Shown here: positions 2,592 to 64,000 of the stretch, piece after piece | How the letters are laid out: every line of letters starts with the position of its first letter | Numbering within the stretch: the first letter of the stretch is position 1 | DNA from: an uncultured Acidobacteriota bacterium | GTDB lineage: Bacteria; Acidobacteriota; Vicinamibacteria; Vicinamibacterales; 2-12-FULL-66-21 | Assembly (NCBI GenBank): GCA_963710415.1 | Contig: CAVQAH010000024.1 | Location: 150,234 to 214,233 of the forward strand | Direction: 5' to 3' | Length of the DNA: 64,000 nucleotides | Made by a program: the position numbers and the translations under genes | The notes under the pieces: model-generated | The model's database searches: none | Seen by the model: only the letters and a program-made list of their open reading frames with translations | What the model was told of the DNA's origin: nothing

Positions 2592-2612
2592 CGCTGTCGA
2601 GTTCACGCTTAG

Positions 2613-2650
2613 GGGCCGGCTGCCACTGGTGGCCGGCCTTTTCTGTTTGT
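2613..2650 (+). terminator. Rho-independent terminator after the OmpA-family gene
   Basis: 'GGCCGGCTGCCA-CTGG-TGGCCGGCC' stem-loop followed by 'TTTTCTGTTTGT', about 20 nt after the stop. Confidence 0.7.
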
Positions 2651-2712
2651 CGGGCCGACGCTGTCAGCATGTTTTCGTGCTCGCGGGGGCTGCAGGCGCT
2701 TTTCCGATTTCC

Positions 2713-2803
2713 GTGCTCGCGGGGCCCCACCCCCGCTCGCTTCTCGCTCGGCGGCGCGGCTTCGCCGCGCTGCCCTCCGGCGCCTCGCTCAGGCCGCAGG
2801 CGC
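2713..2803. repeat. ~90-nt GC-rich dispersed intergenic element, copy 1
   Basis: 'GTGCTCGCGGGGCCCCACCCCCGCTCGC...CCGCAGGCGCT' is about 80% identical to 36596..36687. The central hairpin is GCGCGGC-TTC-GCCGCGC. Confidence 0.8.
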
Positions 2804-2804
2804 T

Positions 2805-3904: not shown

Positions 3905-4729
3905 CCTCGATTCGACCGGCCCGTGCCGTGTCGAACGACGATCCGATCTCCACCTCGTCGCAACTCAATCCCCAGCGAAATCTGGTGCGGACGGGCTCCG
4001 TGCAGAGTCGAGAAACCGCACCGTAGGGATAGGCGAACTCCTGGATGGTCCTGCCGGTGATGCTCGCGAGAGCCGCCCGGCAGTCTTCCAACTCACTCTC
4101 GATAACCCGAGGGGCCTGATCGGGAAGCGAGAGGTGATTCACCGTGTGCGCTCCGATCGACATCCCCGGGATGCGGGCGAGTTGCGCAACTTCGTCGGAC
4201 ACGAGCGGCCGTCGGCGAACCGGAGGCCCACCCAGACGGCGCAACTCGTCGATCAGCCGCTCGCGAACCTCGAGCGTCGCATGAACCAGCAGCGCATGGA
4301 GGTGGTCGTGAGATGCACGCCGTTGATCCGGAGTTGCCGTGCTCAGACGAAGCGGCTCCGGCCCTGACAGGTTGATGGAAGGCGGAACCGACTCGTTGAG
4401 CAGCAGCACACGCTCGAGCGTGTCCCACCAGTATTCGCCTGGAGTACGGAGCCAACCCGACGTGAGAAAGAAGGTCGCTGGCAGCCCCGCACGTTCGAGC
4501 GCCGGCGCCGCGTGCTCCAGATTGTCGAGATAGCCGTCATCGAACGTCAGCGCGATGGCGCGCGGCGGCAGGTCGCAATCTGGCGTGCGCAACAACTCGT
4601 CGAGCGGAAGTCACCCGGTAGTCGCGCGCGAGCATCTTCACGTGTTCGTCGAAGCGCTGCGCGCGAAAGCGCCAGACCGTGAACATCCTCGTCGTCGGCA
4701 ACGCGGTGGTAAAGCAGGACGGCCCTGCC
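3837..4729 (-). CDS. Polysaccharide deacetylase (NodB homology) domain, frame breaks at its 5' end
   Basis: ORF 3837..4595 contains 'AIALTFDDGYLDNLEHAAPALERAGLPATFFL'. The domain start 'VLLYHRVADDEDVHG' sits in the frame of ORF 4547..6319, and 'FRAQRFDEHVKMLARDYRV' sits in a third frame. That implies two breaks near 4610 and 4690. It may be fused to the upstream methyltransferase protein. Confidence 0.75.
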
Positions 4730-23355: not shown

Positions 23356-24742
23356 GGCGGTGCTCTTTGACCTTGGAGAGCAGCATCTTGTAGGTGATCT
23401 GCAACAGCTCGGCGGCGCGGCCCTTGTTGTTATCGGCTTCCCGCAGGACCTGCTGGATCTTCAGACGCTCGGCCAGTGACATCGCGCGCCTGCCGACGTC
23501 GGTGAGACTGCCCGACATCTCGAACTCCGCCCACGGATCCGCTTCGGGCTCCGGCTGCGCATGAACGGCGTGGAACGTCAGGTTGAGATGACGCGGCAGA
23601 ATCGTGTCGCCTTCGGCGAGGATGACGGCGCGCTCGATGCTGTTCTGCAGCTCGCGGACGTTCCCCGGCCACCGGTATGACACGAGCTGCTCCACGGCGG
23701 CCGGCGACAGCACGATCGGTTTCTTCTTCATGTCGCGGCAGAAGCGGTCCGTGAAGTAACGAGCGAGGAGCGGGATGTCGCCCGGCCGCTCGCGCAGCGG
23801 CGGCACCGTAATCGGGAACACCGATAGCCTGAAGAACAGGTCCTCGCGAAAGCGCCGCGCGGCCACTTGTGCGCGCAGACCGCGATTGGTTGCGGCGACG
23901 AGCCGGACGTCGACCGTCACGAGCGCGGTGCCCCCGACACGCTCGAAGCGTTTTTCTTCGAGGGCGCGGAGAATTTTCGCCTGCAGCGAGAGGGGCAGAT
24001 CGCCGATCTCGTCGAGGAACAGCGTGCCGTGGTGAGCCATCTCGAACTTGCCAGGCTTCCTGGCCACGGCGCCGGTAAACGCGCCCTTTTCATGTCCGAA
24101 GAGCTCGGTCTCGAGCAGGGTTTCAGGGATGGCCGCGCAGTTGATCGCGACAAACGGCTCGTCTGCGCGCGGGCTCAGCGCGTGCAGCGAGCGCGCGAAC
24201 AACTCCTTACCGGTACCGCTTTCCCCTTCGAGGAGCACCGTCGTGTCGGTCGACGCGGCGCGCTGCAGCGAAGCGAACACCTTGCGCAGCGAGGGATCTT
24301 CGCCGACGAGCAACGGCGCGCCGCGCCGCACCGCGAGCTCTTCCTTCAGCAGGAGGTTTTCCGTCTGTATGCGGCGCTGCTCCAGGGCGCGAGCGACCAG
24401 CAGCAACAGATGGTCGGGATCGACAGGCTTCGCCAGAAAGTCGAGCGCGCCTTCCCTCATGGCGGCGACCGCATCCTCGATGCTGCCGTACGCCGTCATG
24501 ACGATCACCGGGATCTCCGAATCGAGTTCCTTGGTCGCGCGGAGGACGCCGAAGCCGTCACCTGCCGGGAGCCGCAGATCCGAAAGGACGAGCGCTGGCT
24601 GGTTGTGCTGAAGAAGTTGGACGGCTTCTTCCTGATCGCGCGCCTCGAGGACACCATGACCCTGGCGCTCCAGCGCGTGCCGAAGCATCGCGCGCAGCGA
24701 GTCCTTGTCCTCGACGATCAGGATTTGGGCGGGCGCAGCCAA
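23348..24742 (-). CDS. Sigma54-dependent response regulator (NtrC family: REC + AAA+ + Fis-type HTH)
   Basis: ORF 23348..24742 (464 aa), intact. Contains '[19 protein letters not shown]...DLRLPAGDG', '[53 protein letters not shown]' and a C-terminal HTH '[23 protein letters not shown]'. Confidence 0.9.
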
Positions 24743-25410: not shown

Positions 25411-25455
25411 CCCGATTCCGCTTTCCAATTCCCGCCATCCGATTTCCGCTTTCCC
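25411..25455. repeat. Degenerate heptamer array (TCCGATT/TCCGCTT type)
   Basis: 'GCCCGAT TCCGCTT TCCAATT CCCGCCA TCCGATT TCCGCTT TCCC'. Same unit family as 2805-2839 and 59831-59965. Confidence 0.75.
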
Positions 25456-35329: not shown

Positions 35330-36589
35330 TCACCCCGGGAGAGGGAGCGTCACGGTCAGCCTGGCCCCGCCACCCTCGGCATTGGCGGCCGCCACGCGTC
35401 CGTTGTGCGTCACGATGATCTTCTGGACGAGCGCGAGGCCGAGTCCCGTGCCGCGCGCTTTCGTGGTGAAGAAAGGCCTGAACATGCGTGCCTGCATGGC
35501 CTCCTGGATTCCCGCGCCGTTGTCGGTCACTGTCACGCGGAGCACCGGATGGCCAGGCTCGCGGCTGCCTTCGATGACGATTCTTGGCGTCACATTCGCT
35601 TCGAGGCACGCCTCCAGGGCGTTGCGACAGAGGTTGCTGAAGGCCTGCCGCAGCAGCACCTCGTCACCATCGACGTGGCCAAACTCGCCGAGAATGTCGA
35701 TTGTCCCTCCCCTGGATCTGACGTCGCCGCGCACGTCGTCGGCGGCACGCTCGACCACTGCCGACATGTCCACGGGGGTCAGCACCAACTCGGTGGGCTT
35801 GGCGAAGTTCAGGAAGTTGGTGACCACCTGACCGAGCGCCTCGGTCTCGTCGCGGATGCCGACCACGCACGCTCTGAAATCGTCGGGCAGACGATCGAGA
35901 TCCAGCAGCCGGCTATAGCCATGAATCGTCGCCAGACCATTGCGGAATTCGTGCGCGATGCCGGCGGTCAGCTCACCGAGCCGCGCCAGGCTGTCTTTCA
36001 GCCGCAATTGCTCCTCGAGCTCGACGACGTCGCTCAGGTCCGTGAACAGGCAGATGGCGCCGTGCGCCGCATCGTCGCCGGCGATGGGCGAGACGGTGAC
36101 GCCGAGGTGTGACGTCGTACCGTTGGCTTTCTTCATCTGCACCGCGCGGCGTACGATGGCGCGGCGGCTCGTCAGACATTCGTCCAGGACGTCGGCCAAC
36201 GCGCTGCTGTCCGTCAACATTTCACGAAAATGTCCGAGCGGCGCGTCCGTGGGCAGATGCAGTATCGATCGGCCGGCGGGGTTCAACGTGCGCACGGCGC
36301 CCTCGGCGCCGACCACCAGCAGGCCTGACGTCATGCTCGCGATGATTTCGCTGCTCAGGCGTTCTGATGCCTCGGCGCGCGCCGCCATCGCACGCTCCTC
36401 GATCCGGAGCTTGCGCACGGCTTCCTCCATGGCTGATGCCATGAAGGCCGTTTCCGCACCTTCGACACGACCTGATTGCGTAGCGGCGCGGGCGGCGGTA
36501 AAGAACTTCGCTGCCGCGAAGGCGAGCAACCCCACCAGCGCCGCGACGACGGCCGTCAAACCGAGGAAGAGGTAGGCTGACTGAGTCAT
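35330..36589 (-). CDS. Membrane sensor histidine kinase (TM + PAS-like + HisKA + HATPase_c, NtrB/AtoS-like)
   Basis: ORF 35330..36589 (419 aa), intact. The H-box is 'LGELTAGIAHEFRNGLATIHGYSRLL'. 'VTDNGAGI' and 'GTGLGLALVQKIIVTHNG' are present. Confidence 0.85.
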   Translation of the reverse strand: MTQSAYLFLGLTAVVAALVGLLAFAAAKFFTAARAATQSGRVEGAETAFMASAMEEAVRKLRIEERAMAARAEASERLSSEIIASMTSGLLVVGAEGAVRTLNPAGRSILHLPTDAPLGHFREMLTDSSALADVLDECLTSRRAIVRRAVQMKKANGTTSHLGVTVSPIAGDDAAHGAICLFTDLSDVVELEEQLRLKDSLARLGELTAGIAHEFRNGLATIHGYSRLLDLDRLPDDFRACVVGIRDETEALGQVVTNFLNFAKPTELVLTPVDMSAVVERAADDVRGDVRSRGGTIDILGEFGHVDGDEVLLRQAFSNLCRNALEACLEANVTPRIVIEGSREPGHPVLRVTVTDNGAGIQEAMQARMFRPFFTTKARGTGLGLALVQKIIVTHNGRVAAANAEGGGARLTVTLPLPG

Positions 36590-36595
36590 CTATTG

Positions 36596-36687
36596 GTGCT
36601 CGCGGGGCCCCAGCCCCGCTCGCTCTCGCTCGGCGGCCGGCCTGCGGCCGGCTTCACTCCGTCGCCTCGCTCGGAGCCGCAGGCGCT
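36596..36687. repeat. ~90-nt GC-rich dispersed intergenic element, copy 2
   Basis: Aligns to 2713..2803. The central hairpin here is GCCGGCC-TGC-GGCCGGC, a different sequence with the same structure. It is followed by 'CGAGCAC', the inverse of its 5' 'GTGCTCG'. Confidence 0.8.
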
Positions 36688-36723
36688 TGCTGGCTGCACG
36701 AGCACGATCATGCGACTCATCAA

Positions 36724-37500
36724 TCAGATCCTATAGAGCCCCACATACCACGCGACGATCTGATCGCCGAACAACGACGCGATGAGGGCGCCCAGCGCGA
36801 GGAAGGTACCGTAGGGGAGCGCGTATTTCAAACCGCCCTTCCTGATCGCCAGAACCAGCAGGCCGATCAGCGCGCCTGCGATCGACGAGAACACCAGCGT
36901 GACGATGGCCAGCTTCCAGCCGAGGAAGGCGCCAATCATCGCCAACATCTTCACGTCGCCGCCGCCCATGCCTTCCTGGCCGGAAAAGCGGTAGTACACC
37001 TCGCCGATGGCCCAGAGACTGCCGCCGCCAATCAAGGCTCCGAGTGCGGCCGCGATGATCCCGGGCGGCAGCAACAAGCTGAAGGCCAATCCGATGGCGA
37101 TCCCGGGGAGCGTGATGGCATTCGGCAGCAGATGATGCTCCAGGTCGATGGCGAAGAGCACGATCAGCATGCAGGCAAAGAACAGCCGCGGGACAAGCAG
37201 GATGTCCGGCCCGATGATCAGATAGTGCGCCAGGAATACGACCATCGTCACGACCTCGATGATCGGATACCGGATCGAGATTGGCGCGCGGCACGAGCGG
37301 CATCGGCCGCGCAGGAGCAGGTAGCTGATCACCGGAATGTTGTCGTACCAGCGCAGGGCGTAGCCGCACCCGGGGCACCGGGAACCGGGGCTGACGACCG
37401 ACTTGTGTTCTGGTAAGCGGTGGATGCAGACGTTGAGGAAACTGCCGACAGCGAGACCGAACAGGGCCAGCACTGTCACCACGAAAGTGTCGGACATCAT
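36724..37500 (-). CDS. pilD: Prepilin peptidase / N-methyltransferase (A24 family)
   Basis: ORF 36724..37500 (258 aa), intact. Contains 'FLNVCIHRLPEHKSVVSPGSRCPGCGYALRWYDNIPVISYLLLRGRCRSCRAPISIRYPIIE' and 'GGGDVKMLAMIGAFLG'. Confidence 0.9.
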   Translation of the reverse strand: MMSDTFVVTVLALFGLAVGSFLNVCIHRLPEHKSVVSPGSRCPGCGYALRWYDNIPVISYLLLRGRCRSCRAPISIRYPIIEVVTMVVFLAHYLIIGPDILLVPRLFFACMLIVLFAIDLEHHLLPNAITLPGIAIGLAFSLLLPPGIIAAALGALIGGGSLWAIGEVYYRFSGQEGMGGGDVKMLAMIGAFLGWKLAIVTLVFSSIAGALIGLLVLAIRKGGLKYALPYGTFLALGALIASLFGDQIVAWYVGLYRI

Positions 37501-42217: not shown

Positions 42218-42764
42218 TTACTGCAGCACGGTCCCTCCGCCTGACGGATCCATCTCCCCCTCGGTTGGCGGAGATGCCGTCCGGCCTGAAGAACAGCACG
42301 TACTTGTTCGTCGTGGCGAACGCCCTGTGGCCGGACCGCCCAATCGACAGCGGAGCGGCGGTCAGGTAATAGCCCATGCGCGTCTGCGATCCGTGGCAGT
42401 CGAATGGCCCGAGCACGGCGCTGCCGGCGTCGAGCGTGATTGTGTAGCCGCTCTTCGTCGACGGGTCCACCGCGAGGTCGGGCGAGATGAATCCGACGGA
42501 TCCGCCGGGGCATGCGGTGGCGAGCACCGACAACTGCACCGCGTATCCTCCGGTCGTGGCCGACGCCGCAAACGCGGCTTCGGCGCTGTTCACCGCGCGC
42601 AGCGTTCCGATGGCGGAGGACTCGTTGCCCGCCATGCGTGCCCGCAGCAGCATCGGCAGCGCCATGGCCGAGACGATTCCGATGATCGCCACCGCTGCCA
42701 GAAGTTCTATCAGTGAAAATCCGCGCGCGCCGTTCGAACGCGCTCGCGCAGCACGCCCCGCCAT
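42192..42764 (-). CDS. Type IV pilin paralog 2 (3' end probably mis-framed; likely true stop near 42218)
   Basis: ORF 42192..42764 has 'ARGFSLIELLAAVAIIGIVSAMALPMLLRARMAGNESSAIGTLRAVNSAEAAF'. An alternative frame ends '...SGGGTVLQ*', parallel to '...ETGGTPLQ*' in the pilA alternative frame. Confidence 0.8.
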   Translation of the reverse strand: MAGRAARARSNGARGFSLIELLAAVAIIGIVSAMALPMLLRARMAGNESSAIGTLRAVNSAEAAFAASATTGGYAVQLSVLATACPGGSVGFISPDLAVDPSTKSGYTITLDAGSAVLGPFDCHGSQTRMGYYLTAAPLSIGRSGHRAFATTNKYVLFFRPDGISANRGGDGSVRRRDRAAVTCTCGRPP

Positions 42765-42901: not shown

Positions 42902-43438
42902 TTACGAGGTGCTTACTGGAGCGGCGTGCCGCCGGTCTCCGGCAGGAGCGCCACCGGTCGCGTCCGCCACGAAGTAGAGCGTGCCGTGCGCTGCAGTCGA
43001 GAACCCGCGAACGCCCGTGTTGCCGACGCCCACCGGAACTGCCGTCGCGTAGTAACCCGTGCGGCTCACCGTCGTGCCGCTGCAATCCGTCGTCACGTCC
43101 GCAGGCGTTCCAACCGTGCTGTCCGCCAGCGCGATCGTGTAGCCGCTCTTGATGGACGGGTCGGCCGCGAGGTCAGGCGAAATGAACCCCTGCGACGAGC
43201 CCGGGCAGGGCGTTGACAGCACCGCCAGCAGAATCGCATATCCGCCGCCACCCGCCGACGCTGAATACGCCGCTTCCGCGCTGTTGACCGCGCGAAGCGA
43301 ACCGATAGCCGACGACTCGTTGCCCGACATGCGGGCGCGCAGCAGACCCGGAACGGCGATCGCCGCGATGATGCCGATGATCGCCACGACGATCAGCAGC
43401 TCAATAAGCGTGAAACCCTTCTGGTTACGAACCTTCAT
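42902..43438 (-). CDS. pilA: Major type IV pilin (own sigma54 promoter and terminator)
   Basis: ORF 42902..43438 (178 aa) with 'QKGFTLIELLIVVAIIGIIAAIAVPGLLRARMSGNESSAIGSLRAVNSAEAAY'. Two Cys residues are present. An alternative-frame C-terminus '...ETGGTPLQ*' would put the stop at about 42913. Confidence 0.85.
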   Translation of the reverse strand: MKVRNQKGFTLIELLIVVAIIGIIAAIAVPGLLRARMSGNESSAIGSLRAVNSAEAAYSASAGGGGYAILLAVLSTPCPGSSQGFISPDLAADPSIKSGYTIALADSTVGTPADVTTDCSGTTVSRTGYYATAVPVGVGNTGVRGFSTAAHGTLYFVADATGGAPAGDRRHAAPVSTS

Positions 43439-43835: not shown

Positions 43836-45267
43836 TTACTTCAGATTGTATTTCTTCATGTAATACCGGAACGATCGGAAGCTCATGCCGAGCAGTTCGG
43901 CGGCCTTGACCTTGACACCGCCGGCGCGCCGTAGGGCTTCGGCGATGTACTCCCGCTCGATGTGCTGGACGTGCTGTTCGAGGTCGATCCCGCCTTCGGG
44001 GAAGCCGTCCCCTGGCTGGACGTTCACCGGGCAGTTGGATGCGGCGCTGTTTCGCGGACCTGCTCGGGCAGGCTGTCCGCGAGGATCGTCGGCGTGCGCT
44101 CGAGCGCCACCGCCCGTTCGATGGCGTTTTCGAGCTCGCGGATATTCCCCGGCCACGGGTAGGCCTTCAGGCAGGCCAGCGCGTCGCCCGAGATGCCGGT
44201 AATCCCCTTCCCCATCTGCTCGGCGAAGCGGGTCACGAAGTGCTCGGCCAGGAACGGGATGTCTTCGACCCGCTCGCGCAGGGCTGGCAAGACGAATGGG
44301 GATGACGTTGATCCGGTAGAAGAGGTCCTCGCGGAACTCGCCCGCGGCCACCATCTTCGACAAATCCCGGTTGGTGGCGGCAATGACCCGGATGTCCGCT
44401 TCGACCTCCTCGGTCCCGCCGAGCCGCCTGAAGCGCCGCTCCTGCAGCACACGCAGACAGCTTGACCTGGACGAGCGGGCTCATCTCGCCGATCTCGTCG
44501 AGGAAGATCGTGCCCTTGTCGGCGACTTCGATCAGTCCCTTCTTGTTGGTGTCCGCGCCCGTGAACGCGCCGCGCATATGTCCGAACAGTTCCGAGTCGA
44601 GCAGGGTCTCGGACAGTGCCCCGCAGTTGACCGCCACGAACGGCTTGTCTTTTCGGAGCGAGTGGAAGTGGATGGCCCGCGCGACGAGCTCCTTGCCGGT
44701 GCCCGACTCGCCGGTGATCAGCACCGTGCTGCTGGTCGGCGCAATCGTCTCGATCAGCTGGAAGACCGCGAGCATCGGCTCGCTGCGCCCGATGATGTTC
44801 GAGAACTGGTGCGCGGTCTGCAGCGCGCGCTTCAGGAGCACGTTCTCCCGCTGCAGGTGGCGGCGCTCCATTTCCTTTCGCACCCGCAGCCGGACTTCGT
44901 TGGCGGCGCCAGGCGACTTGTGCACGTAATCGGCCGCGCCGAGGCGCAGCGCTTCGACCGCGGTGTCCGTCGACGCGAACGCCGTCATCACGATGCTGAT
45001 GATCTCCGGGTCGATCTTCTTGGCCTCCCTGAGGACGTCCACGCCGCTCATCTGCGGCATCCGGATATCGGTGATCAGGATGTCGACGCGTTCGCGCTTG
45101 AGCAGGTCGATCGCGACCGCCCCATTCTCGGCAAGCAGCACTTCATAGCCATCGCGGCGCAGCACGATCGTCAGCAGCTCCCGCATCGACCGCTCGTCGT
45201 CGACGACGAGCACGCGGGGAGGAGTCTCCGACGCCGAACGATTCGGTGTTCGCACCTCGGTGGCCAT
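43836..45267 (-). CDS. pilR: Sigma54-dependent response regulator PilR, three frame breaks
   Basis: ORF 44233..45267 carries REC plus '[53 protein letters not shown]'. It continues in ORFs 43836..44450 and 44024..44452 ('[14 protein letters not shown]'). The C-terminal HTH is '[25 protein letters not shown]'. Breaks are near 44455, 44290 and 44030. Confidence 0.85.
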
Positions 45268-57184: not shown

Positions 57185-57233
57185 CCAGCTGCCAGCTACC
57201 AGCTGCCAGCTGCCAGCTACCAGCTACCAGCTA
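57185..57233. repeat. Heptamer array CCAGCT(G/A) x7 (left flank of four-helix-bundle gene)
   Basis: 'CCAGCTG CCAGCTA CCAGCTG CCAGCTG CCAGCTA CCAGCTA CCAGCTA' read directly. Confidence 0.9.
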
Positions 57234-57302
57234 CATGTTGAGTTCCCTCCTACCTGAGCATCAAGATTGCAGGCTGCGGCGCGTCTCATTCAGGAGGACG
57301 CG

Positions 57303-57673: not shown

Positions 57674-57722
57674 GGCAGCTGGCCGCTGGCAGCTGGCGAC
57701 TGGCAGCTGGATGCTGGCAGCT
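57674..57722. repeat. Heptamer array GGCAGCT-type x7 (right flank, inverted relative to the left flank)
   Basis: 'GGCAGCT GGCCGCT GGCAGCT GGCGACT GGCAGCT GGATGCT GGCAGCT'. It contains 'GGCAGCTGG', the reverse complement of 'CCAGCTGCC' in the left array. Confidence 0.9.
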
Positions 57723-57740
57723 GACGCGGAGGTTGCCCTT

Positions 57741-59828: not shown

Positions 59829-59830
59829 GA

Positions 59831-59965
59831 ATCGGAAATCGGACATCGGAAATCGGAAATCGGAAATCGGACATCGGACATCGGACATGGAATCCGATTG
59901 TTCGACACTGAGTCGCCCGATTGTCGACTATCCGATGTCCGATGTCCGATGTCCGATTTCCGATT
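59831..59965. repeat. Large heptamer palindrome (ATCGGAA/ATCGGAC x8 opposite TCCGATG/TCCGATT x5)
   Basis: The left arm is 'ATCGGAA ATCGGAC ATCGGAA ATCGGAA ATCGGAA ATCGGAC ATCGGAC ATCGGAC'. A ~44-nt centre separates it from the right arm 'TCCGATG TCCGATG TCCGATG TCCGATT TCCGATT'. It lies between the convergent EF-G gene and rplQ. Confidence 0.9.
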
Positions 59966-60614: not shown

Positions 60615-60699
60615 CCGGGGACTCGCGCTCGGATCCGTCGTCGGGTGGCTCGGCGCGACGGACTTCGAGCACCGAGTCCCGAGCCCCGAGTCCCGGCAC
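60615..60699. repeat. Inverted heptamer element (CCGAGTC type) in the rpoA-rplQ spacer
   Basis: 'CCGGGGACTCGCGCTCGG' (60615-32) is complementary to 'CCGAGTC CCGAGCC CCGAGTC CCGG' (60672-95). Confidence 0.7.
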
Positions 60700-63540: not shown

Positions 63541-63613
63541 CCTTGTAGTCGTGAGTCGACTAGTCGTCAGTCAGTCGACTGACTGTCGACTGCCGACTGC
63601 CGACTCCCGACTG
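63541..63613. repeat. Inverted heptamer element (GACTGNC type) in the rpmJ-rpsM spacer
   Basis: The left arm is 'GTAGTCG TGAGTCG ACTAGTC GTCAGTC AGTC'. The right arm is 'GACTGTC GACTGCC GACTGCC GACTCCC GACTGTC'. Confidence 0.8.
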
Positions 63614-63954: not shown

Positions 63955-64000
63955 AACTACGCGCTGCCGCACGTCGCACGTGGCACGTCGGCACGTCGCA
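63955..64000. repeat. GCACGTC-type heptamer array upstream of infA (runs off the window)
   Basis: 'GCACGTC GCACGTG GCACGTC GGCACGTC GCA' read directly. Confidence 0.7.

Follow-up and report, generated by a model that had tools for sequence, protein, structure and literature searches.

Neisseria REP2, and likewise Borrelia IR-A, are dispersed repeats of ~120–150 bp that lack terminal inverted repeats and are predicted to form stem-loops as RNA (Delihas 2011, PMC3184786). REP2 stands directly upstream of open reading frames, to which it supplies the 5′ UTR, the ribosome-binding region and the ATG (PMC3184786). [quoted passage not shown] REPs are single hairpins of 20–40 nt that carry a GTAG or CGTC tag (PMC3733652).

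The repeat considered here occurs twice in the window, the 64,000-nt stretch of DNA from an uncultured Acidobacteriota bacterium that we analysed. A sequence-only reading of this DNA had picked out two ~90-nt intergenic stretches as related to each other; both are indeed present, and they are copies of one undescribed folded repeat family scattered through the genomes of Vicinamibacterales. These bacteria are among the commonest in soil, and to our knowledge almost nothing is known about their gene-expression signals. The literature that we searched held no paper with the motif and none on repeats in this bacterial group.

The element fails the tests that define REPs, MITEs, attC sites, terminators and Rfam families, including the three candidate identities put forward by the sequence-only reading in the form in which it stated them. 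With the RAYT-associated REPs and BIMEs it shares high copy number, GC-rich imperfect palindromes, a mosaic and modular build, spread without target duplication and, probably, handling as a single strand. It differs from REPs in its length of 70–100 nt, its three helices and its position 5′ of genes in sense orientation, whereas each kind of REP is restricted to one species or genus and is found mainly at gene 3′ ends or between convergent genes; the element alignments have no GTAG or CGTC tag flanking the core or the 5′ box, and a location at gene 3′ ends, the other hallmark of REPs, is likewise lacking. As a miniature mobile element it would join Correia elements and other bacterial MITEs (ERIC, RUP, Nezha), which it resembles in its small size, its many copies, its presence or absence at orthologous sites, its frequent location 5′ of genes and its probable co-transcription; however, neither the regular terminal inverted repeats nor the fixed target duplication of such elements (TA for Correia) was found, and we know of no transposase related to it. 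Its likeness to integron attC sites extends to the conserved ends around a variable structured centre, the strand-specific folding and the location just before the next open reading frame, but its consensus has no R″/R′ core sites (RYYYAAC ... GTTRRRY) and its neighbours are core housekeeping genes rather than cassettes, with no integrase context. As a structured RNA it matches no Rfam family: the whole window gives nothing at the gathering score, and the surroundings of both copies give only noise at E up to 10. The tRNA/tmRNA scan found nothing either.

Two full copies in the window

Both copies read on the minus strand, which we call the informative strand. Their parts are as follows.

36590–36687, minus strand: copy 2, full long form (5′ box, P1, internal loop, P2, P1′, core hairpin, tail)
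36676–36687, minus strand: 5′ box AGCGCCUGCGGC of copy 2, a module kept in 87 of 128 core-bearing copies
36625–36674, minus strand: P1 helix of copy 2, with arms 36663–36674 and 36625–36635 around the loop CGGAGUGAAG and P2; covariation at two P1 pairs and tandem G·A at fixed positions
36636–36652, minus strand: 7-bp hairpin P2 of copy 2, capped by the minus-strand triloop GCA
36598–36623, minus strand: core hairpin P3 of copy 2, GCGAGCGGGG-CUGGGG-CCCCGCGAGC, a 10-bp stem with tandem G·A and with compensatory natural variants elsewhere
36590–36600, minus strand: tail of copy 2, AGCACCAAUAG
2713–2804, minus strand: copy 1, full long form with the tail shortened to AGCAC
2754–2770, minus strand: 7-bp hairpin P2 of copy 1, capped by the minus-strand triloop GAA
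2715–2740, minus strand: core hairpin of copy 1

The proposed ~90-nt alignment is borne out, with 14 differences over ~93 aligned columns (~85% identity), and the element proves slightly longer at both sites than had been claimed. Six of the 14 differences make up three compensated pairs in the central hairpin, which, as the sequence-only reading had noticed, changes its sequence and keeps its structure: GCGCGGC-TTC-GCCGCGC (2754–2770) and GCCGGCC-TGC-GGCCGGC (36636–36652) are both perfect 7-bp stems. That reading had missed the strand, the third (core) hairpin and the link to start codons described below. It had also bounded copy 2 with the inverted repeat GTGCTCG (36596–36602) ... CGAGCAC (36699–36705), which does exist, with a right arm that falls beyond the conserved element and is peculiar to copy 2. 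Terminal inverted repeats common to all copies were not found, the ends AGCGCCTGCGGC and GCGAGCAnTRA not being mutually inverted.

The 28-nt left part has exactly two matches in the window at up to three mismatches, and none in shuffles. A covariance model was trained on 19 long-class copies, 17 of them taken from other genomes and two from the window, so that the scores of the window copies are partly circular; it gives 106.3 bits to copy 1 and 105.1 bits to copy 2. Because the third-best match reaches only 12.1 bits (E 0.21), we take the window to hold two full copies and no diverged ones.

Family size, range and modular build

In a scan of one genome per species, the 23-nt core CGCGGGGCCCCANCCCCGCTCGC occurs at no fewer than 120 loci in ~65 assemblies; the sequence-only reading had named the lack of further copies as grounds for giving up its proposal, and they turned up in large numbers. 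Nearly all carriers are labelled Vicinamibacterales, Vicinamibacteria, Acidobacteria gp6 or Acidobacteriota (Vicinamibacterales being Acidobacteriota subgroup 6). Core matches in one Sandaracinaceae and one Deltaproteobacteria genome come without the other modules and look like chance; three matches in a genome labelled Betaproteobacteria (MAG252) have the core plus the tail. Viral contigs gave no core match. The core is identical across ~60 species-level genomes, and the 27-nt hairpin across dozens of species; sampling the loci by an exact match to the 23-nt core makes that core look better conserved than it is. On 763 kb of these seeded loci the covariance model finds 123 copies, ~20 of them beyond the seeds, and on 291 kb of unseeded orthologous loci from relatives it finds none. 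The two counts imply a density of about one copy per 30–100 kb in carriers and zero in other genomes, and the empty loci of the relatives mean that the element is dispensable.

Read along the informative strand, the parts follow in the order 5′ box AGCGCCUGCGGC, P1 left arm CCGAGCGAGGCG, middle, P1 right arm, core and tail. The middle of the commonest, 42-nt class is a hexaloop, CGAAGU, without P2; that of the 63-nt class, to which both window copies belong, consists of the conserved, purine-rich internal loop CCGGAGGGAAG and a P2 with a GNA triloop. The family core, GCGAGCGGGG-GUGGGG-CCCCGCGAGC, forms a 10-bp hairpin, and the tail, AGCAnURARAAA, is unpaired, A-rich and adjoins the start codon. 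This canonical layout is found in 87 of 128 core-bearing copies, with 42, 51 and 63 as the main length classes. The remaining 41 have the same core and tail behind different 5′ modules, again with CGAAG(U) loops, and some 5′ boxes are joined to other 3′ modules; since 5′ and 3′ modules occur in differing combinations, the family is a mosaic. As a rule the tail contains a stop codon, 3–6 nt 5′ of the start codon; at tail offset 5–7 one is present in 68 of the 128 copies.

An additional 5′ hairpin, UGCYG...CRGCA, precedes the element in 17 copies, and its Y and R covary in 16 of them. It belongs to an extra module of ~45 nt (GGCCGUGCYGGGCUG, ~25 nt, then AUCRGC joined to the 5′ box), where the Y/R covariation implies a further helix; the module is listed for loci L050, L051, L055, L057, L061, L064, L071, L081, L086, L093, L095, L098, L105, L117 and L030. 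Other repeat families related by shared parts occur at L016, L075 and L078 (adjoining the element) and at L066, L031, L036 and L092, either with the hairpin centre GGGGCCCCACCCCC inside different complementary stems (GCGAT/ATCGC, GCGTT/AACGC, GCGCT/AGCGC) or with the 5′ box before a different 3′ part; the GGGGCCCCACCCCC hairpin centre may be the unit under constraint. No autonomous parent element was found among the orphan 5′ boxes.

We considered whether the element is protein-coding and rejected the idea: the lengths 42, 51 and 63 divide by three, but those of one third of the copies do not, the frames differ among copies, and the middle covaries as a helix.

Structure and strand specificity

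Across the 19 long copies, the three-helix model has 86% of its cells paired versus 75% in shuffles, and 41 compensated cells versus 13 in shuffles (0 of 500), with 3–7 in slid controls. P2 is paired at 97.7% of cells in these copies, and both sides have changed at five of its seven pairs, which strengthens the earlier claim of compensatory change in the stem. The 42-nt class has 219 paired cells versus 190 ± 3, and the cells of its P1 that are not Watson–Crick are G·A (71 cells), in tandem and alternating with G–C or C–G at the same positions. The rare variants of the core are all compensatory, three from C–G to U–A and three from tandem G·A to Watson–Crick, so that the apparent direct repeat GCGAGC...GCGAGC is in fact a stem. 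P1, P2 and the core are real helices, maintained by compensatory changes together with tandem G·A pairs. Compensatory changes between paralogous copies speak less strongly for selection than those between orthologues would, and homogenisation of palindrome arms at the DNA level could account for a part of them.

The strand follows from the same mismatches. Where the sense strand has G·A the opposite strand would have C·U, and because the mismatches are tandem G·A pairs only the informative strand folds well. Folding predictions make the sense strand the more stable one for 74 of 80 copies under RNA parameters, with a mean advantage of 3.9 kcal/mol, and for 66 of the 80 under DNA parameters. 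The P2 loops take the form C-GNA-G, and the predicted stability of the hairpins is about −50 kcal/mol. Tandem G·A pairs of the CGAG/CGAG type and C-GNA-G triloops are stable in RNA and DNA alike.

Energy minimisation favours another hairpin, in which the 5′ box pairs with the P1 left arm; we rejected it, since compensations are absent and every variant disrupts its pairing.

Position relative to genes

In the carrier genomes, whose loci were seen as 8-kb pieces with crude gene calls (open frames with GC3 bias), the gene downstream of the tail is co-oriented with the element in 95 copies and opposite in 29. A sense gene start lies downstream in 87 of 114 copies; by context, 51 copies are in divergent intergenic DNA and 36 are co-directional in sense, and the antisense co-directional (15) and convergent (12 of 114) settings are both depleted. 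A stricter test looked for gene starts no more than 30 nt from either end of the element: the tail side has one in 29 of 87 copies, the 5′ side in five. Start codons cluster either 10–12 nt after the core, as the ATG of ...AAAUG, or 20–25 nt after it, behind a GAGGA-like motif. The adjacent-gene position is not obligatory, as copy 1 is antisense and faces a terminator and about one quarter of the copies are not sense-oriented.

The genes downstream are functionally unrelated, encoding the ribosomal proteins L3 (in two genomes), L4 and L16, Pth (peptidyl-tRNA hydrolase), UbiD, a Clp ATPase, RuvA, an ABC ATPase, a glutamine amidotransferase and a sigma-54 activator. Some copies, preceding rplC, rplD and rplP, are intercistronic within the ribosomal S10 operon; transcription must then carry them in sense as part of a polycistronic mRNA, and they are not terminators. 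It is this operon context that leads us to infer transcription of the element. One locus (L057) has two copies in its S10 operon (2108–2205 and 3970–4089), one preceding rplD (Pfam L4) and the other a gene starting MSRSLKKG that looks like rpsS by eye.

Neither sigma-70-type promoters nor intrinsic terminators were found within or beside either window copy, and the sequences 5′ of the element are heterogeneous, with no conserved target sequence there. A sigma-54 promoter was also considered, as GG and GC at −24/−12 spacing can be made out by eye in the core, and rejected, as its predicted start site would fall 3′ of the ATG used in copy 2 and in many other copies.

Neisseria REP2 and Borrelia IR-A, together with the mycobacterial MIRUs, are the nearest relatives in kind among described repeats, and REP2 is the best functional analogue. 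Like REP2, the element stands directly 5′ of open frames and provides the region before the ATG, as the 29 versus 5 asymmetry and the conserved tail indicate. Unlike the element, REP2 has its own promoter, none being detectable by the sigma-70-type scan at the window copies, and many copies here are intercistronic; REP2 is also limited to one genus, ~25 copies and a co-regulated gene set, whereas the element spans an order and unrelated genes. The two have no sequence similarity.

Copy 2 between pilD and a histidine kinase gene

Copy 2 fills the junction of two minus-strand genes.

36724–37500, minus strand: prepilin peptidase (PilD), the upstream gene (Pfam A24_N_bact, Peptidase_A24)
36586–36720, minus strand: putative 44-codon open frame, starting 4 nt after the pilD stop, running through the element and ending in a UGA that overlaps the kinase AUG (AUGA)
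35330–36589, minus strand: PAS histidine kinase, the downstream gene, with its start codon 11 nt after the core hairpin (Pfam PAS, HisKA, HATPase_c)

The kinase AUG (36589–36587) is also directly preceded, in frame, by the UAG that ends the tail. A search for proteins identical to this PilD, aimed at near-identical strains, gave no record. At the orthologous pilD-kinase junctions in metagenome contigs of relatives, the two genes overlap (TGATG, TAATG or ATGA), are separated by a 10-nt spacer, or have a spacer of unrelated heptamer arrays; the true empty sites in relatives are without both flanks of the element. Because relatives have overlapping stop and start codons at this place, copy 2 was inserted between two genes that had been coupled before.

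The arrangement recalls the MIRUs, in that copy 2 has the same stop/start overlaps and lies between cistrons in the direction of translation, as do the 36 copies that are co-directional with the genes on both sides. The likeness has limits. MIRUs are best known as variable-number tandem arrays, whereas tandem copies are a minority for the element, and they have tetranucleotide direct repeats, whereas no regular repeat is found at the element. The bridging frame with its stop/start overlap is seen for copy 2 only; unlike in MIRUs, the frame through the element is not conserved, there being no conserved start or reading frame inside it across copies.

Copy 1, its short form and the spread of the family

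Copy 1 is flanked by an OmpA-like gene with its terminator on one side and by a HEAT-repeat gene on the other, and is antisense to both genes. Its surroundings are as follows.

2611–2651, plus strand: intrinsic terminator of the OmpA-like gene, facing the short-form tail
2661–2676, minus strand: canonical tail GAAAACAUGCUGACAG after the short form
2677–2700, minus strand: short form, AGCGCCUGCAGCC joined to CCCGCGAGCAC
2701–2712: spacer GGAAATCGGAAA between the long and short copies, repeating the heptamer sequence from the other flank of copy 1
2805–2841: heptamer array (TTTCCGA) × 5.3, adjoining the 5′ box of copy 1

With this terminator pointing at the short-form tail, copy 1 has no sense gene behind it. 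The short form had been taken for something like an empty site. It exists, at 2677–2700, but that interpretation of it is wrong, for the true empty sites have neither flank; it is an internally deleted tandem copy that retains the 5′ box and the 3′ end of the core. It is separated from the long copy by GGAAAUCGGAAA, which is repeated on the other side of the long copy. Similar fragments stand beside full copies at three loci of other genomes (L014, L102, L108). The high-GC3 phase of the OmpA-like gene (896–2591) shifts near 2310, by either a frameshift or a sequencing error, and the first frame stays open through the terminator and the repeat to 2848, so that copy 1 falls inside a spurious open frame of 650 aa.

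Tandem copies, internal deletions and swapping of modules between copies are all seen in the family. At orthologous sites the middle module can differ by a whole subtype, as it does 5′ of rplC in L081 and L098 and at the site shared by L005 and L029, which points to recombination between copies or to repeated insertion. Flanking direct repeats beyond the 99th percentile of shuffled pairs were found for 10 of 86 copies, with lengths of 10 to 71 nt, by a test that is blind to duplications of 2–4 nt. A regular target duplication, or a retroposition-like insertion with an A-rich tail and variable flanking repeats, was rejected because too few copies have flanking repeats. At three loci (L029, L005 and L092), long diverged direct duplications of host coding sequence (54–71 nt) flank the element; the duplicated part is the 3′ end of a gene that looks like ATP synthase gamma by eye in L029 and L005, and the first 18 codons of a sigma-54 response regulator in L092. 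These duplications hint at an unusual mechanism of insertion or duplication.

Discussion

We propose, with middling confidence, that the element is a portable, transcribed and structured module of mRNA leaders or intercistronic regions, and that its family is confined to Vicinamibacteria. What the copies display is a fold, a strand, a position before start codons and insertion between existing genes. On our proposal the compact GC-rich fold would keep the insert from pairing with the start region, insulating it, and the tail would replace the native translation-initiation region, with ribosomes perhaps re-initiating after the stop codon of the tail or loading onto its A-rich stretch. The hairpins may in addition buffer mRNA decay between cistrons. 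Copies that happen to work in this way would survive, and the orientation bias would be the outcome of that survival. If the module is functional in this sense, it would be a natural portable leader that uncouples the start of translation from the upstream context.

The main rival, which we regard as rather doubtful, is that of a selfish, non-autonomous element without host function, moved as single-stranded DNA by an enzyme that recognises hairpins, such as the TnpA of IS200/IS605 or a REP-associated Y1 transposase. The folding strand would then be the substrate of the enzyme, and the orientation would reflect the lagging-strand template together with the survival of harmless insertions. Much of the evidence can be read this way. 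Insertion polymorphism without regular target duplication is what IS200/IS605-type transposons display; both ends are conserved and hairpin-forming around a variable middle; the better-folding strand is favoured by DNA parameters too, in the 66 of 80 copies given above; and GNA triloops and tandem G·A pairs are stable in DNA too. Orientation agrees with GC skew (88:40) and with the locus-wide direction of genes (89:38) to about the same degree as with the nearest gene, so that replication may have a part in the bias. The window copies lie on one strand although their neighbour genes differ in direction. Against this, the skew is unbiased (16:13) for copies whose downstream gene is opposite, and one locus (L095) has two divergent copies, separated by 160 nt and each directed at its own gene start, an arrangement that a replication rule makes impossible. 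The tight spacing to start codons would be unexpected of such an element, and the sequence 5′ of it contains no conserved target. Neither a transposase nor an inverted pair flanking a small gene was seen among at least 120 loci, where only about two would be expected. Were the element purely selfish after all, it would be a clean new case of the spread of a small element without inverted ends or target duplications.

The leader module that we favour may also be taken further, to a functional RNA module of the whole lineage, whose conserved core is read by a conserved partner (the ribosome, an RNase or an RNA-binding protein) and sets SD-independent initiation or the stability of cistrons. We consider this stronger proposal unlikely. 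If true, the module would serve about a hundred genes per genome, ribosomal-protein cistrons included, and would amount to a mobile 'insulated translation start' cassette.

A discrete regulatory RNA, whether a small RNA gene or a riboswitch-like leader that answers to a ligand or protein and controls a regulon, would account for the covarying multi-helix structure, for the conservation of the purine-rich loop CCGGAGGGAAG in the 63-nt class and for the location in 5′ leaders. It seems to us decidedly unlikely, as the genes downstream have no common function, the P2 domain that bears this loop is missing from the commonest class, neither a promoter nor a terminator brackets the element, Rfam offers no match even with the E threshold raised to 10, and riboswitches do not typically occur in tandem or vary by insertion.

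The palindromes might instead be read in double-stranded DNA, as duplex or as cruciforms, by a nucleoid-associated or regulatory protein. Such a site would suit the promoter-proximal location and the highly conserved 8-bp palindrome GGGGCCCC inside a larger palindrome. However, the G·A mismatches are confined to the better-folding strand, an asymmetry irrelevant to duplex recognition, the stem sequences vary freely while pairing is kept, and there are copies between the cistrons of the S10 operon, all of which makes this idea very unlikely. A U-tract-free terminator or attenuator, such as has been suggested for GC-rich genomes, finds the very stable GC-rich hairpins (about −50 kcal/mol) in intergenic DNA to its credit and is nevertheless scarcely credible, because no T-run follows the hairpins on either strand, the copies lie 5′ rather than 3′ of genes, termination between S10 cistrons would be harmful, and copy 1 adjoins a separate canonical terminator.

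The element is also of practical use, both in genome annotation, which it burdens with spurious open frames, and as a marker of the lineage in metagenomic data.

Other repeats and gene families in the window

The window is rich in genes for type IV pili and type II secretion, among them pilD, paralogous pilin-like genes and repeated prepilin-type N-termini.

27132, 33925, 41973, 42684 and 43379: sites of type IV pilus/type II secretion genes
23625–24164 versus 44109–44650: a pair of compared stretches
42422–42721 versus 43117–43416: a second such pair

It also holds two paralogous regulator genes that are ~72% identical over 165 nt.

Intergenic tandem arrays of 7 nt, with differing units, occur at 2805–2841, 25412–25449, 57185–57234 with 57674–57723, 59830–59885 with 59931–59964, 60672–60695, 63581–63613 and 63968–64000. 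Several of them are inverted pairs and thus potential long hairpins. They resemble the heptamer repeats of cyanobacteria. The same type of array fills the pilD-kinase junction of relatives and sits 5′ of many copies of the element, and a comparison of two loci (L136 and L147) has such an array grown from a 10-nt spacer.
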